Source of the DNA: a virus
Lineage: Duplodnaviria; Caudoviricetes
Direction: 5' to 3' (one strand)
Length of the DNA: 37,102 bases
Virus record (IMG/VR): IMGVR_UViG_3300036546_000129
Coordinates: 1-37,102 of that record
Shown: one piece after another, positions 18,513 through 26,133 of the stretch
Layout of the letters: each line of letters opens with the position of its first letter
Position numbering within the stretch: the stretch's first letter is position 1
Notes under the pieces: model-generated
The model's database searches: none
Told to the model about the DNA's origin: nothing
Seen by the model: the letters and a program-made list of their open reading frames with translations, nothing else
Made by a program: the position numbers and the translations under genes

Positions 18513-20806
18513 AGTTCTATGATTTAATTGGTAAAAAAATATATAACAAAGTTTACCTATGTTATGGTAGTTCTCCAAATTTAAAAACATAGGTACACGG
18601 TTATGTTTGAAAAGTATTTAAAAGTGTCGGGGTTTATCCCATTTCCCCTTTCCGGTAACAGTTGTTACTTAGATGAAAACGGAAAAATAAAAAATGAAAG
18701 AGGTCAGGTTGTACCCCAAACCCTGGACTCTGATGGATACCCTCAGGTTTTCGCCGACCTGTGGGATGGGGTGAGACAATACCGCATCGTCGATCTCATG
18801 GCGATCGTCTTTAAAAGTGTAAAACTCCAATATAACCAGTGGAATGAAATCGAAGGTTTCTACATAGACGGTGATGTCAAAAATAGCCATGCTAGCAATA
18901 TTGGTTATCGCTTTCGTACTTTCCCTTTACAGTGCACACGCTTCCCTGACTTCTACCACATTCCGATGTTTAGTCGATACGGCATAAATCGTGAAGGGGA
19001 ACTCATTTCACTGTCTAGTGGTAAATTAAGATCAGATTGGTGCGTCACGAAAGGTAACTCTAAGAGAAACATAAAAGGCGGTTATCTGTATAACGGCGCT
19101 ATCATCGATACGGGTGGAAGTACTACTGTACTTAGGCATCGTCTCCTGTGTCTGGCGTTCAAACCCTACCCTGACAACGTGGATAAGATGGATGTCAACC
19201 ACATTGATGGTGTCCCTGGTAATGATGATCTAGACAACCTCGAATGGGTCACTCGGAGCCGTAACAACACACACGCGTATCAGAACAACTTAAAGCAACA
19301 ACATAAACGTGTATTAGCTCGTAATGTTCGAACGGGTGAGGTTACTGAATTCTACAGTATCTCTGAGTGTGCTCGCTGTTTAGGGTATCCTACGGACGAA
19401 ACAATACGAGTGCGATTAAATTCGACCTTTTCTCAGGTTTGGAAAGACGGTTACCAATTCAAGTTTTTGGATGATGCTCGAGATTGGGTAATCCCTGACG
19501 ATCCTGAAGAAGCGATACTCGACGCCACCCAAGCTATGGGTGTTCGTGTGCGAAATTGTCGCACACTTGAAGAGTGTTCTTACGACTCTATAGGGAGGGC
19601 TGGTGCTGTTTTGGGAATTGGTCACTCCACTATCCTTTATCGTTTAAAAAACGGTCTCACAGGTCCTCATAGGGGCTTTCAGTTTAAATACTGGGACGAC
19701 CTTTCAGATTGGGAACCGTTTACCTTAGAAGAACTCGAAGACACTGGGAGTGTTGCAAAGTCTGTAGAGGGTCGAAATCTGTTGACCAAAGCTACCTGTA
19801 GTTACCCTAGTGTTAAAAGTTGTTACTACGGTCAGAACAAACCTTACAATTTAATAGTAAACCTTCGTTCTGGAGAACAACGGGTTTACCCGGATGGTTG
19901 GCAATACAAATACGTTGATGACCAATGGATAGAGGTCGGCGACGTTCAGGAAGCCCTACTAGAGTCTAGCCGTAGGATTGTTGCGCGAGACGTATTAACA
20001 GGCGAAGTGTTTGCTGGTAAAGACTGTAAAGACATTAGTGAAAAACTAGAATTGCAAGCAAATGGAGTGCGGCGTGCAGTTCAGGAGTCCGGTAAGTCAG
20101 TTTACAACACTTATCAGTTTAAGTACGAGGGTGACCAAACCCCTTGGCCTGAGCTGCCTGAAGAAGACCTGGTTGCGCTAAGTAGTGGCGTAAACGTGAA
20201 AGGAACATACAAAGTCCTCACTGACATAAAGACTGGGGATAGGTTTTACTTCCCGAGTGTTTTAGATTGTGTCCGGTTTTTAAAAACAGTAAATTCTAAA
20301 CCCGTTTTCGAACGGCGAGTTAGGAGCGGCGAACTCCTAGACGGTAAATATAAATGCTCCACCTATACACTGGCGTCCCATCAACCTAGTGTGTAAAACG
20401 ATACTTTTCAATTACTCAATTAATTCATCGATGTCCCGTTAAAGGGTGACCTTTAACGTGTATCCCTCTAATTGCGGGAAACCCCTGAGAGCCTCTTAGT
20501 ACCCCTTACAGCCCGAAAGGGACTGTAATACTCCTGGCGTAATATTTCCAAGGAGCATGGTAAAAACCTAAGAGGATTGGGTAACCGACGCAGCGAAGTC
20601 CCTCTATGCTTAGGCAGTGGGATGAGTTCAACGACTAACCGGTAGCGCGGTGTAGGGGCCAAGTGGTCTCGAAATGGGGGACTTCTCACACACGTAGTGA
20701 TGAGAAGATGATATAGTCTCGACGTCCAGTGAAAGCTGGAGCAGCGCTGTAACACTGTGAAGCGTTACAGTGGCGGCTTGGATTAACGACCCAAGTGAAG
20801 GTTTCG
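18513..20806 (+). mobile_element. Group I intron 1 (HNH-encoding) in the vRNAP beta' catalytic motif
   Basis: The 5' exon ends in U (GAT) and the intron ends in G (20806). Core elements: AATTGCGGGAA (P4), AACCGACGCAGCGAAG (P4'/P6), TTCAACGACTA (P7) and GATATAGTC (P7'). Splicing restores GAD-FDGD. The P1 pairing is weaker than for introns 2 and 4. Confidence 0.92.
18603..20396 (+). CDS. Intron-encoded HNH homing endonuclease (597 aa) with tandem NUMOD1/IENR1-like repeats
   Basis: HRLLCLAF...VNHIDGVPGNDDLDNLEWVTRSRNNTHA (HNH_3 type). About five repeats of V..RN..TGE...F.S...A..LG...GYQFKY.DD...W. Confidence 0.9.
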   Translation: MFEKYLKVSGFIPFPLSGNSCYLDENGKIKNERGQVVPQTLDSDGYPQVFADLWDGVRQYRIVDLMAIVFKSVKLQYNQWNEIEGFYIDGDVKNSHASNIGYRFRTFPLQCTRFPDFYHIPMFSRYGINREGELISLSSGKLRSDWCVTKGNSKRNIKGGYLYNGAIIDTGGSTTVLRHRLLCLAFKPYPDNVDKMDVNHIDGVPGNDDLDNLEWVTRSRNNTHAYQNNLKQQHKRVLARNVRTGEVTEFYSISECARCLGYPTDETIRVRLNSTFSQVWKDGYQFKFLDDARDWVIPDDPEEAILDATQAMGVRVRNCRTLEECSYDSIGRAGAVLGIGHSTILYRLKNGLTGPHRGFQFKYWDDLSDWEPFTLEELEDTGSVAKSVEGRNLLTKATCSYPSVKSCYYGQNKPYNLIVNLRSGEQRVYPDGWQYKYVDDQWIEVGDVQEALLESSRRIVARDVLTGEVFAGKDCKDISEKLELQANGVRRAVQESGKSVYNTYQFKYEGDQTPWPELPEEDLVALSSGVNVKGTYKVLTDIKTGDRFYFPSVLDCVRFLKTVNSKPVFERRVRSGELLDGKYKCSTYTLASHQPSV

Positions 20807-20981: not shown

Positions 20982-22625
20982 ATGATACTCTATCCGATTT
21001 GGTACCGTAAACACGGTATACGCAGACCGTCTGACCTTTTAGGTCCTAAGTTCAGTAAACTGTCCAACCTTGCTTTACCTAAAGAATCCGTACTCCACTA
21101 CTATCCTGAAGACGACATCGTGTATGGTCTTCCGGGTGATGACGTTATGATCAAGGCGGATGATCGTCCGGTGGTTGTAGAACATATTACAGAACTGGGT
21201 GATAACAAAGGAGCACCAAAACCACTGCCTGTGGTTCCGGCCAAAATGATCCGTGAGTATCATCGTAAAAACAAACGGGTACGTTGGCTTAAGAACCGTG
21301 AGATTGCTTTCTCCAACCCTAAGACGTTGGTCGTTGAGAACTACGCACTCTTGAACCACATGTACCGCTACACCACTAGTTTCTTTGCGAACTACTACCG
21401 CTGGTATAACGTCCGGGCGGCGTTATGGAAAGGTGTAAACAGGATCGCTAAAGAAAGTGAACGTCAGCAGTACATTAAATGTACGTTACCTGATACACTC
21501 CCGTCTTTGGCTGATTTACGTAAACTTGAGAAGCGTTTAGATCGCACCACCTTGGATAAGTTCAAGGGGACTGAAGAGTATAACCTGGCCGACTTCTGGA
21601 CTTGGTTAGGTGATAACCGCGCTAACTCGGTTATGTCGTTAGTGGATACCAAACACCTTGATAACCTTAACATGGTGTGGGTGTGTCAAGATCGTTGGTT
21701 TGTGTTGAACCTAGGTATGCTGAACGATTGGCGTGCCACTGAAGTCGCTAAGGAAGGTACCACTGAGGGGATCAAACCGATCAGTTTACAGAAACGCGTC
21801 ATGCGTTTATTGATGTCACTTTACGAAACCAAGACGGTGAGTGAAGACGAAGCAAAACCTGTTCGTGAGAAAACCAATAAAGAAGCAGAAGCACTTCCGG
21901 ATACAAAAGATGAAGGGAGTGTGGATGAACTCCACCGCGAGGGCGAGCTCCTTCTGAATGAAGACATCACACTTTTCCAAAATGAGCAGGACGAACTGGA
22001 TCTGGATTCAGAACTGGACGCACTGAATGATCTTCACAAGAAACTGGAAGCACAACAAGAAGCGGAAGCCAGTCCCACTGAAGTGAATGAAAGTATTCGA
22101 GCGTCTGAAGTCGATCTTTCACAACCGGTGATTGAAAAAGCGAACCAGTTAGCGGATAGCGGGATGTTGTCAGCCGCTGAATACCGTCGACTGAACAAAT
22201 TAGCTGAAGTTCACAAAACACTCAAAAACCCTTATGGAGATGGGTTGCTGGTGGATGAGGCTAAAGTAGACCCCAAAGCCGTAACACTGGAGACCGTTAC
22301 CCAGTTCCCTGACAGTCCCTCAGTCCTAGACAAAAGTATGCTTCAAAACAGTGTTGTTGATTTCGACACACGGTATATCAAACACGTTTTGAAAAAGGAC
22401 GTGTTAGGTAGCGTACTGAACCTGCAAAATGCGGGGGTATCAGTAACGGGGTATGATGTTGATCGTGTGGACGGTCCGTTGGGGAGCTATGAAGTTCACA
22501 AGGTTAAGGTGGTACCGGTTAATGGTTCGCCTAGTACGCTGAATTTCCGTTTACCTGTAATAGAAGAGAACGGTACTTATGTAGCCAATGGCGTAAAATA
22601 TAGATTAAGGAAGCAACGAGGGGAT
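20982..22625 (+). CDS. rpoB: Virion RNA polymerase beta-like subunit (phiKZ gp178-like), exon 1
   Basis: Ends with the beta motif LPVIEENGTYVANGVKYRLRKQRGD, then TAA as the first intron triplet. Confidence 0.88.
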
Positions 22626-23188
22626 TAAAGCCGCTACTCTCGATAACTGTATCTCATGGTATTAGTTTTAGTCGAGACGTAATGGATGATTAACAAAGCA
22701 GTGGGTAAAAAACCCAGTCCAAAAAGACTCGGTACAGAAACCTTTATTGAAAATGTCTGTAAAGAAAAAGTCTGGATTGGAAACATTGTTTTAGTGTTAA
22801 TTAATGGTCCCCGTGTCTTGGTAACAAGGCACTAGAAAACCTACCTAATTGCGGGAAAACGTCTATAATCTTTTTTGACTACCACTTACAGGTGGAAACA
22901 CACTGTAATACTCACCCCAGTAATGGAAGCGGTGAGCATGGTAAAAACGTCGAAAAGAGACGCAACCGACGCAGCGAAGTCCCTAAGGTCTACTTACTAG
23001 TGGGCTATGGGATGTGCTCAGAGGCCATCGAAAGCTACGGTCAGTCCCCCAATAAACTGACTCAATGACACCTGTATAAAGTCAGGTGGTCACACTGGTG
23101 ATTAAAGCGAGTAGAGTAGGGACAGTATGGTTCCGAAACGGTAGGCTTCCCTCTGGGAAGAAGATATGGTCCATTTTGGATAGGAATG
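22626..23188 (+). mobile_element. Group I intron 2 (563 nt, no intact endonuclease)
   Basis: The 5' exon GGGGAU pairs with IGS GUCCCC (~22807-22812) with U-G at the splice site. P4 AATTGCGGGAA, P7 GGCCA/TGGTC, terminal G 23188. Splicing gives QRGD-LPIRK. Confidence 0.85.
22686..22835 (+). pseudogene. Probable homing endonuclease remnant (49-codon ORF in intron 2 P1 loop)
   Basis: MINKAVGKKPSPKRLGTETFIENVCKEK...NGPRVLVTRH*. Same position as the endonuclease genes of introns 1 and 3. KRLGTETFIE resembles the K-K-L-T-T-E-E-F-I repeat of some phage endonucleases. Confidence 0.45.
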
Positions 23189-24625
23189 CTACCTATCCGT
23201 AAAGTTTCCCCCTTCCGTGTTGCCCTGACCAGTTATTATGGTAAAATGTTTGTCGAACGTTCCCAGCGCAGTGCGAATAACTACGGGAAGTGGTTAGAGA
23301 ACCAATTGATATTGAAAGCTCTGGATGAGAATGATCCCGATATCCTGGAATCACGTACCTCTAACATCTTCAAGGCAACTAATAAAACTCCCCGCATTTA
23401 TGCACTGTTGGCTAGGACGTTTAAAAGCTTCGGCACCCCTAAGTACACATTCTACTTGGACTTTGAAAAACGCGAAGAGGTCTACGGGAAAGACTTCGTA
23501 ACGAAAGCGGAAAAGGAAGGGGGCGTTGTTATAGGTCACCTGAAGTCCAACAAGAAAACACTTATTGTTGTCGATGACCAAGATACGTTTTACGAACACA
23601 GTGAAGGTGGACTCAAACCCATCGGTAAGTTGGAACAGTTGCTTAACATCGATATCGCTGGTGCACCTGTTGAATTGGCTGAACTGAAGGTCTTCAATAA
23701 GTTCATCCCGATCGGTGTGGTGTTAGGCTACTATATCGGACTTGAACGCCTTTTAAAACTGTTAAAGGTCGAGTACCGTAAAGTGAATGTGGGTGAGCGC
23801 GCGGAATTGTCCCCCACTGAATTCTCCGTTCGTTTCATTGACGAAGTGTTAATCTTCGATCGTGACGATCGACTGTCTAGCATGGTTGTCGGCGGGTTTA
23901 ACCTGTATCACCGTAGTATCAAGAGTTATAGTGTTTACGATTTTGACAAACCAGACGTGTACGGTAGCGTCCTAGACGCTAATAAAGTAGGGGCACGTTA
24001 CCTGAGGGAATTGGATCTCTTGAAGGATATGTTTGTCGACCCTATCACCCGTGATCTTTTGGTAGAGATGGAAGAGCCAACAGACTGGTTAGGTCTTCTC
24101 TTGCGGGCGAGCGAATTACTCTTGACCGACTATTCCCCAGCAGAAACCGACATGGAGTGGATGCGCATCAAGGGCTATGAGCGTGTAGCCGGTACCGTAT
24201 ACGGAGAACTTGTTAAATCAGTTCGCATGTTTAATGCACGGGGAGGGGGCAAAAATAACCGTGTAGAACTTTCACCCAGTGCCGTATGGCAGACGTTACA
24301 AGAGGACCCCTCCAAAGGACTGGTAGAGGAACTCAACCCTGTTGAGAACTTACGTGAGAAGGAGGCTGTCACATACAGTGGTCATGGTGGACGCTCCCGT
24401 AGGAGTATGGTTAAGTCCAGTCGTGTATTTACGGAATCGGATATGGGGGTGATCTCTGAAGGTACAGTGGATTCAGGGGACGTAGGTATTGTCAGTTATC
24501 TGAGCGCTGACCCTAACTTCACCAGCCTTCGTGGATTGGCACGTAAAAGAGATTTTGATAAAGATGGTCCGGCTACATTCCTGAGCACAGCAGCGATGCT
24601 TTCGCCAGGTGCTGATCGTGATGAT
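23189..24625 (+). CDS. rpoB: vRNAP beta-like subunit, exon 2
   Basis: beta motifs ELNPVENL...VTYSGHGGRS, R.F..SDMGVISEGTVDSGDVGIVSYLS. Ends ...PGADRDD followed by TAA. Confidence 0.9.
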
Positions 24626-25742
24626 TAATAAATGTTTATTGAAGTTTATACTCCTATCTTATAACTAAACGGTTATAAGGAAAATAGGTGTGTTAAATTT
24701 AAAAGGGTTTAAAAGTATACCAGGATATAGTGACTATGTTGTTAATGTAGACGGTGTAGTCGTTAGTTTAAAAACTGGTCAAGTTTTAAAAGCTTCTAAA
24801 AATGGTTCAGGGTATTTACAAGTTACAGTTAATAGAGACAATGGTCAACGTCAAGGTTTAGGTATACATCGTGCTTTAGCATTGACTTTTATACCTACAG
24901 ATGAAGACAAAAATTCTTTAATTGTAAACCATAAAGATGGTGATAAACTTAATAATAGTTTAGATAATCTTGAATGGTGTACTTATGTGGAAAATAGCGA
25001 ACATGCGGGTAAATACGGTCTTACAACAAAATGTAAACCGATATCTATCCGCGATAAAAATGGTTTAATAATATCTTTTCCTAGTTTTGTTAAGTGTGCT
25101 CGCTTCTTAGGTGTTAGCAAAGACGCTGTAATTTGGCGAGTAAAAACTAAAGGCAAAATTCGTTTTAAAGATGGTTATCAATACCATGAAGGTTACGACG
25201 TTACTGATTGGCCAGAACCAATTAATAAAACAATAGTGGTTAAAGATCTTGAAAAAAATTTATTTTATATTTTTGATAAGAAACAAGATGCCGCTAAGTT
25301 TTTAAAAGTATGTCCATCAACAATAACCTTTCGCTTAAATGAATCACATGAAAATATTTACCCAGACAAAACCCAAATTGGATATTTATCCGACTTCAAT
25401 AAACAAAATGGTCCAACCATAAAGCAATTTATGGATTGAGTGTTCCTTAATTGCTGGGACGCCCTAAAGCTATTCTACTACTGCGAGTCGAAAGACAAAG
25501 CCAAAGTTTAAAAAATGAATAGATATTACAATGGGTAATCAGCAGCGAAGCTTCTACGGAGTGTTGTGAAACACGCTAGGGAGAACGTTCAACGACTAAC
25601 CCCTCATCAGGGTGTAGGAATCAAGTGATTCCGAAACAGGAACCTTCCTACTGGGAAGAAGATATAGTCTCCTCATCTAGTGAAAGCTAGAGCAGTGGTT
25701 AAGACCACGGGCTAGGTGTAACGAACCTAGTTGAAGATAAGG
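24626..25742 (+). mobile_element. Group I intron 3 (HNH-encoding, 1117 nt)
   Basis: GAT|TAA 5' end. Core AATTGCTGGGA/AATCAGCAGCGAAG, TTCAACGACTA, GAAGATATAGTC, P9 GAAA-loop hairpin. Terminal G 25742. Confidence 0.9.
24690..25439 (+). CDS. Intron-encoded NUMOD4-HNH homing endonuclease (249 aa)
   Basis: N-terminal FKSIPGYSDYVVN..G.V.S (NUMOD4-like), IHRALALTFI...VNHKDGDKLNNSLDNLEWCT..ENSEHA, and two C-terminal NUMOD1-like repeats. Markedly AT-rich. Confidence 0.92.
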   Translation: MLNLKGFKSIPGYSDYVVNVDGVVVSLKTGQVLKASKNGSGYLQVTVNRDNGQRQGLGIHRALALTFIPTDEDKNSLIVNHKDGDKLNNSLDNLEWCTYVENSEHAGKYGLTTKCKPISIRDKNGLIISFPSFVKCARFLGVSKDAVIWRVKTKGKIRFKDGYQYHEGYDVTDWPEPINKTIVVKDLEKNLFYIFDKKQDAAKFLKVCPSTITFRLNESHENIYPDKTQIGYLSDFNKQNGPTIKQFMD

Positions 25743-25753
25743 CCAAAACGAGT
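25743..25753 (+). CDS. rpoB: vRNAP beta-like subunit, exon 3 (11-nt micro-exon, P-K-R-V)
   Basis: CCA AAA CGA GT follows the terminal G of intron 3. It restores the frame and gives DD-PKRV-NFIGIQ. Confidence 0.85.
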
Positions 25754-26133
25754 TTTAACGGCTCATTGACATCTAATTGCGGGAACGCCCTTAGAGCCTC
25801 TTAGTACCACTTACAGGTGGAAACACACTGTAATACTCCTGGCGTAATATTTCCAAGGAGTATGGTAAAAACCTAAGAGGATTGGGTAACCGACGCAGCG
25901 AAGCTCCTACCGTTGACTACCGTCAACCACGGAGTTGGTTCAACGACTATCCCACGGACGTGAAATTCGTCATTAGGAGTAGGGCTCAAGTGTGAGTGGG
26001 TGAGAACCCCTTAAATCGAAATGGTGTCCGTCCTTAAAAAACTAAAGGGCGAAGATATAGTCTATTCTTTGGTGAAAGCCGAAGCTGTACTTTAAGTACG
26101 GGTGGAGACTCACGACCTCCATCGAATATAAAG
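25754..26133 (+). mobile_element. Group I intron 4 (380 nt, ORF-less)
   Basis: P1: exon GAGU (25750-53) pairs with GCUC (25761-64) with U-G at the splice site. Complete core (AATTGCGGGAA, TTCAACGACTA, GAAGATATAGTC). Terminal G 26133, phase-2 junction GT|C. Confidence 0.9.

Follow-up and report, generated by a model that had tools for sequence, protein, structure and literature searches.

The window, i.e. the whole stretch of 37,102 nucleotides analysed here, is a fragment of a phiKZ-like jumbo phage known from a virus record. PHROG and Pfam searches located genes for a tail sheath, a tail tube, a peptidase S80 and a large tail lysozyme as well as split RNA polymerase genes; a phiKZ internal-head-type protein is also present, its Pfam score being below cut-off. 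Rfam returned four group I introns, one in a gp180-like beta' gene and three in a gp178-like virion beta gene. The latter matches PHROG 3148 over positions 1-1422, is split into three called open reading frames (ORFs), and has neighbours matching PHROG 3201, 2986 and 3014, which reproduces the gp181-gp180-gp178-gp175 neighbourhood. Together with a KTN4 homolog annotated as virion-associated, the full-length profile match and the gene order confirmed that this is, as first proposed, the phiKZ gp178-like virion beta subunit. Below, L-numbers refer to relative loci and X-numbers to contigs of eight sequencing runs, recorded as DNA or of unknown kind; a look for RNA runs containing the stretch returned none.

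Table 1. Exons, introns and associated elements of the virion beta gene in the window
Feature	Position	Strand	Evidence
First exon of virion RNAP beta	20982..22625	+	PHROG 3148 positions 1-574
First intron of beta gene; group I, no ORF, very short 3' end	22626..23188	+	Rfam 60.6 bits
Second exon; ends in conserved DD codons, U24625 = 5' splice site	23189..24625	+	PHROG 3148 to position 1050
Upstream group I intron; 1117 nt, IA2-like, phiPA3 gp210 site	24626..25742	+	Rfam 76.7 bits; P3, P7
Putative HNH_3 + NUMOD1 homing endonuclease; 249 aa, 31% GC	24690..25439	+	Pfam; phiPA3 gp210 top match
11-nt exon; P, K, R and two bases of V	25743..25753	+	Intron-less homologs
Downstream group I intron; 380 nt, no ORF, no P2, IA2-like	25754..26133	+	Rfam 58.6 bits; P1, P3, P7
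P1 of downstream intron; U25753-G25761 pair	25750..25764	+	Conserved U-G, double-sided changes
Candidate competing 4-bp helix, 25741-44 with 25760-63, across upstream 3' splice site	25741..25763	+	Folding only; energy marginal
Last exon; opens with third base of V codon	26134..27244	+	PHROG 3148 positions 1065-1422; open frame to stop

Results

A predicted 11-nt exon restores a conserved polymerase motif

Two introns of the beta gene lie 11 nt apart, with coordinates that matched the original prediction to the base; only the numbering needed amendment, the window's third and fourth introns being the second and third of this gene (hereafter, the upstream and downstream introns). GATGAT closes the preceding exon at 24625, the upstream intron opens with TAA at 24626 and ends at G25742, and the terminal base of the downstream intron is G26133. 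Both introns conform to the rule of a U at the exon end and a terminal G in the intron (U24625/G25742 and U25753/G26133), and intron-less alleles confirm these boundaries. When joined, the exons read DD-PKRV-NF in frame, as anticipated, and match intron-less homologs. The four joined exons form an open frame of 1400 aa, of which residues 1-1399 align to the intron-less LucasX protein at 45.8%. Near the sites, 13 sets of junctions keep an open frame and satisfy the U-before-intron and G-at-end rule, and one of them yields DDPKRVNF. Between the two called ORFs on either side, 14 positions of the PHROG 3148 profile (1051-1064) are uncovered, and the spliced model fills this gap with 14 residues. 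That gene callers would overlook the exon also held true, beta being called as three fragments.

Alignment with intron-less homologs, proposed along with the prediction, revealed four residues between DD and NF (or the equivalent) in all 59 of 59 loci, with DD-PKRV-NF itself in 37 of them. The R of the exon was invariant in 28/28 aligned homologs. A correspondence to the HDDANR segment of bacterial beta subunits had been claimed as well, and a profile built from 28 intron-less homologs bore this out, aligning DDpkrvnf with HDDANRAL of Thermus beta; hence, the exon carries an invariant Arg that is R557 of Thermus beta by alignment count. We take R557 to have a role in binding substrate phosphates. 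With the last exon alone, no solved structure was matched, while a profile did reach bacterial beta subunits. A twintron, with zero exon between the introns, was considered too; we rejected it, given that the four residues are required in intron-less homologs.

The upstream intron sits at the phiPA3 gp210 site

Both introns exceed the curated RF00028 cut-off of 50, with cores at 25374-25692 (76.7 bits) and 25705-26084 (58.6 bits). In the upstream intron, the core helices P3 (25442-47/25638-43, 6/6) and P7 (25594-98/25665-69, 5/5) pair fully, and so do P3 (25768-73/26023-28, 6/6) and P7 (25945-49/26058-62, 5/5) in the downstream one; P4, P6, P8 and P9 were found in both. Each intron further contains two extra stems before the 3' strand of P3 and three hairpins in the P9 domain. 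This agrees with subgroup IA2, taken here as having P7.1 and P7.2 between P7 and the 3' strand of P3, along with P9.1 and P9.2 (partly after the accessible portion of PMC3984707).

The P1 of the upstream intron is weak: a bulged helix of 3+3 bp is possible, its U-G pair having a probability of 0.02 when folded in isolation, and the 5' end of the phiPA3 intron looks similar. The exon end at 24625 is identical in seven other loci that bear an intron at this site. The HNH nuclease encoded in the upstream intron had phiPA3 gp210 as its top match among 1720 matching phage records, with 37% identity over 246 aa and the VNHK motif kept. With its insertion after the DD codons of a gp178-like beta gene and an HNH gene inside, the upstream intron conforms to the gp210-type mobile intron. 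According to the available text of Birkholz et al. (PMC11620839), the gp210 intron sits directly after the same two Asp codons in phiPA3, and gp210 nicks the intron-less allele, with escape mutations falling in the second Asp codon.

The likely ribosome-binding site of the HNH gene lies within a hairpin at 24641-24700 (-17.8 kcal/mol). This hairpin resembles the translational repression to which T4 intron nucleases are subject. A scan for sigma-70 promoters remained at chance level (4 observed vs 4.6 expected).

The downstream intron has a predicted P1 with a U-G pair at the splice site

The downstream intron had been predicted to form a P1 with the splice-site U-G pair at 25753, and we indeed found 25750-25754 to pair with 25760-25764, U25753 lying opposite G25761. 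This U-G is kept in 4/4 aligned loci, and double-sided changes affect two of the five pairs (four sequences only). The same intron occurs in L035 at 88% identity. No P10 pairing with the 3' exon was found for either intron (at most 1/6 pairs upstream, three scattered out of 6 downstream); P10 helps splicing but is dispensable in some group I introns, so both still count as members of this class.

Two stretches, 20467-20598 in the beta' intron and 25772-25903 in the downstream intron, share 132 nt at 92% within the P4-P6 extension. The L035 copy of the downstream intron matches this stretch at 76% only, less than the beta' intron does. The likeness suggests gene conversion within the genome. 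In some phages, longer introns occupy the downstream site (L021, L401); that of L021 (L021:4639-5999) spans 1361 nt and contains an HNH-like frame recognised by eye, so a separate nuclease may be associated with the downstream site in other lineages.

Other polymerase introns were observed in passing. The beta' intron (18513-20806, boundaries by sequence), with a 597-aa HNH gene (18603-20396), splits the gp180-like catalytic motif GAD / FDGD; X2 and X3 contigs keep this intron without most of the HNH gene. In the first beta intron (22626-23188), only about 16 nt follow P7 up to the terminal G, without a normal P9 domain. The 3' end of this intron is common to L035, L004, L005 and L027, the L035 copy being about 1.1 kb longer, and the intron-less contigs X2 and X3 join across it. 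Further beta introns lie near residue 1331 of the window product and possibly near residue 630 (L027/L060, L229/L239), and the beta of L058 shows a gap from residue 253 to residue 389. In HPP-Temi (L034, PP968062.1), where a short ORF-less intron occupies the DD site, the annotation gives two beta fragments and a small hypothetical protein; the beta genes of phiPA3 and Serratia phage 2050HW (L062, L063) are likewise annotated as split fragments.

The two introns were likely gained independently

To describe natural alleles, we compared the locus with its closest relatives. L035, at 97% aa identity, is devoid of exactly 24626-25742 and retains the downstream intron. Contigs from X3, X4, X6 and X10 join 24625 straight to the 11-nt exon, and an X8 contig joins across both introns, carrying the identical 11 nt. 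Close relatives are thus downstream-only (L035, X3/X4, X6, X10) or empty (L004, X8 and probably X2); an upstream-only allele was not found among them (2 loci, 8 runs).

From 225 relatives in viral contigs, we took the best 80 and counted 59 empty, 15 upstream-only, 6 downstream-only and no doubly filled loci, in a set that is redundant and in which most upstream-only calls derive from the 3' end of the intron. The script's own classing was 53/10/17, and the 17 were reassigned by eye (6 empty, 5 upstream, 6 downstream). With independent filling, roughly one doubly filled locus would be expected among the 80; the window would accordingly be the expected rare coincidence of two independently filled sites. 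On a quick tree, upstream-only and downstream-only states are scattered, and L425 (with the upstream intron) and L426 (with none) have identical last-exon proteins. Neither the 80 alignment-found loci nor 23 of 27 metagenome loci examined included a further doubly filled locus. A degenerate pattern scan for double loci returned 119 loci from 20/64 viral-contig parts, none of which encodes a beta gene, and a downstream-site pattern returned 63 loci, four encoding a beta gene, three of these with the intron (two near-identical). A literature search, largely without subscription journals, returned no report of introns at both these sites.

Upstream and downstream introns were hence likely gained independently, the 11-nt exon being what would be left over between them. 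Because close relatives show downstream-only and empty but no upstream-only alleles, the downstream intron was probably gained first in this lineage, an order deduced from few, non-independent relatives, X3 and X4 perhaps being one data set and the three closest rows lacking resolution on the quick tree. An ORF-less downstream intron would have been present first, and a gp210-like HNH nuclease would then have homed the upstream intron into the DD site. If it homed into a downstream-filled target, the nuclease can probably do with little native sequence past the first 11 nt downstream.

Either splicing order appears feasible

Very probably, the locus consists of two likely independently gained introns, each predicted to self-splice, with the 11-nt exon kept in the mRNA. 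Each ribozyme would carry out the usual two-step, G-started reaction, the terminal G of the upstream intron defining the start of the exon and the downstream P1 holding its last 4 nt. Since P1 and terminal G hold different exon ends, either splicing order would be possible, perhaps leaning towards upstream-first. The original prediction had reasoned that an exon serving one ribozyme as 3' exon and the next as 5' exon may constrain the order. We found little to uphold this: only the last 4 of the 11 nt take part in P1, and no usable upstream P10 forms with the first 7, so the two roles need not overlap.

A stricter order could arise from competition between helices, which we consider unlikely. 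Here, the terminal GG of the upstream intron and the CC of the exon would pair with the downstream guide and block P1, such that the upstream intron must leave first. Folding of four precursor segments gave P1 a probability of 0.15-0.39 and the competing helix 0.17-0.50; P1 rose to 0.96-0.98 once the upstream intron was removed, and reached 0.91-0.92 in the downstream-only allele L035. However, the energies of the two helices lie 0.2 kcal/mol apart (-3.6 vs -3.4), and the folding takes no account of how P1 and the terminal G dock in the cores. Terminal GG occurs in only two of seven other introns at the upstream site, and the P1 that follows the 11-nt exon of phage AR9 forms at 0.95-0.96 with the upstream intron present, which argues against such a lock as a general property of these exons.

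It is distinctly improbable that such a lock forces upstream-first splicing and, in addition, the nuclease homes into a target shortened by the second intron, carrying the ORF-less intron along. If this were true, ordered splicing and stacked homing at the site exploited by phiPA3 against phiKZ could both be tested in one compact natural locus.

Exon skipping is expected to be a minor error

Omission of the 11 nt was predicted to shift the frame, and it does: the product reads DD-QFHRHPAPLGHGR-stop, with the stop 14 codons on. Skipping would probably be a minor error, after which the subunit would end at about 1040 residues, because the introns differ in P1 and P3. Their P3 strands cross-pair poorly (4/6 and 2/6), BLASTN between the two intron cores returned no match, and the upstream site UGAU is not matched by the downstream guide GCUC. 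The J8/7-P7 3' strands are identical in both introns, making an exon-skipping hybrid core sequence-compatible, and the upstream guide could form four A-U pairs with the last exon and at most one with the 11-nt exon; some skipping is therefore possible. For tandem introns in general, the consulted part of Ueda et al. (PMC10136302) describes a hybrid ribozyme or a distal 5' site as skipping routes, both suppressed by differing splice-site elements.

Skipping on a substantial and possibly regulated scale, by a hybrid ribozyme or by the upstream core capturing the downstream G, with the truncated subunit tuning polymerase output, strikes us as quite improbable. Besides the identical J8/7-P7 strands and similar 3' ends, precedents speak for it: Twort orf142 with a 23-nt exon and Coxiella 23S with 34 nt (excerpts of PMC10136302), and 47% skipping in phage SIOphi (excerpt of PMC11878797). 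The Twort pair is highly similar, though, whereas the window's cores are not alike by BLASTN or P3 cross-pairing. The early stop would moreover fall in a gene that phiKZ needs for progeny (per the available text of PMC11620839), and nothing points to a use of the truncated product.

As regards the integrity of the locus itself, contigs of X1, a run from which the window may stem, match it without difference over 22884-25563 and 25535-25799, the latter stretch showing that it is not a one-off misassembly, and X5 contigs match exactly over 25572-25722 and 25740-25938. Although the window's four introns share contig-breaking repeats and no single listed contig covers the whole region, an artefact (a chimera of repeats) is hardly credible in view of these agreeing contigs, and nor is a pseudogene, since all exons are open, the protein is 97% identical to that of L035 and the core helices of both introns pair fully.

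Discussion

Automatic annotation renders an essential virion polymerase subunit as three fragments and loses 14 residues, including the invariant Arg. Two details are new: another intron site, 11 nt away from that of phiPA3 gp210 and occupied by itself in several lineages, and one genome in which the two sites are filled together. The latter bounds the length of downstream target that a gp210-like nuclease can need. The locus also offers a convenient 1.5-kb substrate for studying how two unlike ribozymes share an 11-nt exon. It reveals no new mechanism, and the same exon size has been annotated in this gene in the AR9 record since deposition.

The original prediction implied that so small an exon is rare, which our survey and the AR9 record do not support. 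We scanned a viral collection for the 3' strand of P7 followed 95-125 nt on by the P4 of a next intron (105 in the window) and obtained 130 loci from 33/64 parts (about 240 estimated), a count of intron spacing and not of exon lengths. In a loose motif test 99/130 loci pass, the upstream motif also passing 237 of 1480 shuffles. Of 20 among the 130 loci examined with Rfam, 15 contain one or more group I introns, and in seven the junction is flanked by an intron on either side. Judged by these sequence patterns, back-to-back group I introns are common in viral contigs. In several loci (L261, L297, L268-L270, L272), four or more group I introns or pattern matches are crowded into about 3-4 kb. 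Jumbo-phage-type polymerase genes are described as frequently intron-disrupted in the accessible text of a preprint (bioRxiv 10.1101/2020.12.14.422802).

Comparison with phiPA3 is the closest for the upstream site. Its gp210 intron, in gp211/209, has the same insertion point after two Asp codons and a homologous HNH nuclease; in contrast to the window, phiPA3 is without a second intron 11 nt downstream (L441), and gp210 measures 330 aa vs 249 aa for the window's putative nuclease. Tandem phage group I introns around a short exon are known from Twort orf142 (23 nt; available parts of PMC10136302, PMC11878797 and PMC3073962), and a small exon in phiNIT1 was found by nanopore sequencing (available part of PMC11878797). 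As far as these texts extend, the Twort, phiNIT1 and SIOphi exons were tested by RT-PCR or long reads, whereas the window's exon is predicted from sequence. Skipping is described there for Twort, whose intron pair is highly similar, unlike the window's, and for SIOphi.

Mitochondrial mini-exons differ in that they reside in organelle genes. They too are below about 4 codons, are missed by automatic annotation and are said to be regular between self-splicing introns (consulted portion of PMC10352661). AR9 has an annotated exon of the same 11 nt. Organelle introns, for their part, are often spliced with the help of proteins.

In AR9, g189 (KU878088.1) is a GenBank join of six pieces, with five group I intron cores visible. 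Our exon model comprises 2796, 78, 11, 178, 220 and 911 nt, the 11-nt third exon lying at record positions 152162-152172 (L032:8768-8778). The deposited AMS01273.1 holds the residues of this exon and differs from the model at the start residue and at one residue, at the fifth junction. The AR9 genome paper is reportedly Lavysh 2016, and the Twort paper Landthaler and Shub 1999. That g189 contains an intron with g190 is stated in the available text of PMC5312081. AR9 and the window hence share an 11-nt exon between two group I introns in the same virion beta gene family. They differ in the motif concerned, TPDSD-KVGV-VRQL in AR9, where neither flanking intron is at the DD site, and in the location of the nuclease, which is encoded in the downstream intron in AR9 (g190) and in the upstream one in the window. 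With the AR9 exon already annotated in the same gene, the window represents a new case of a known arrangement.
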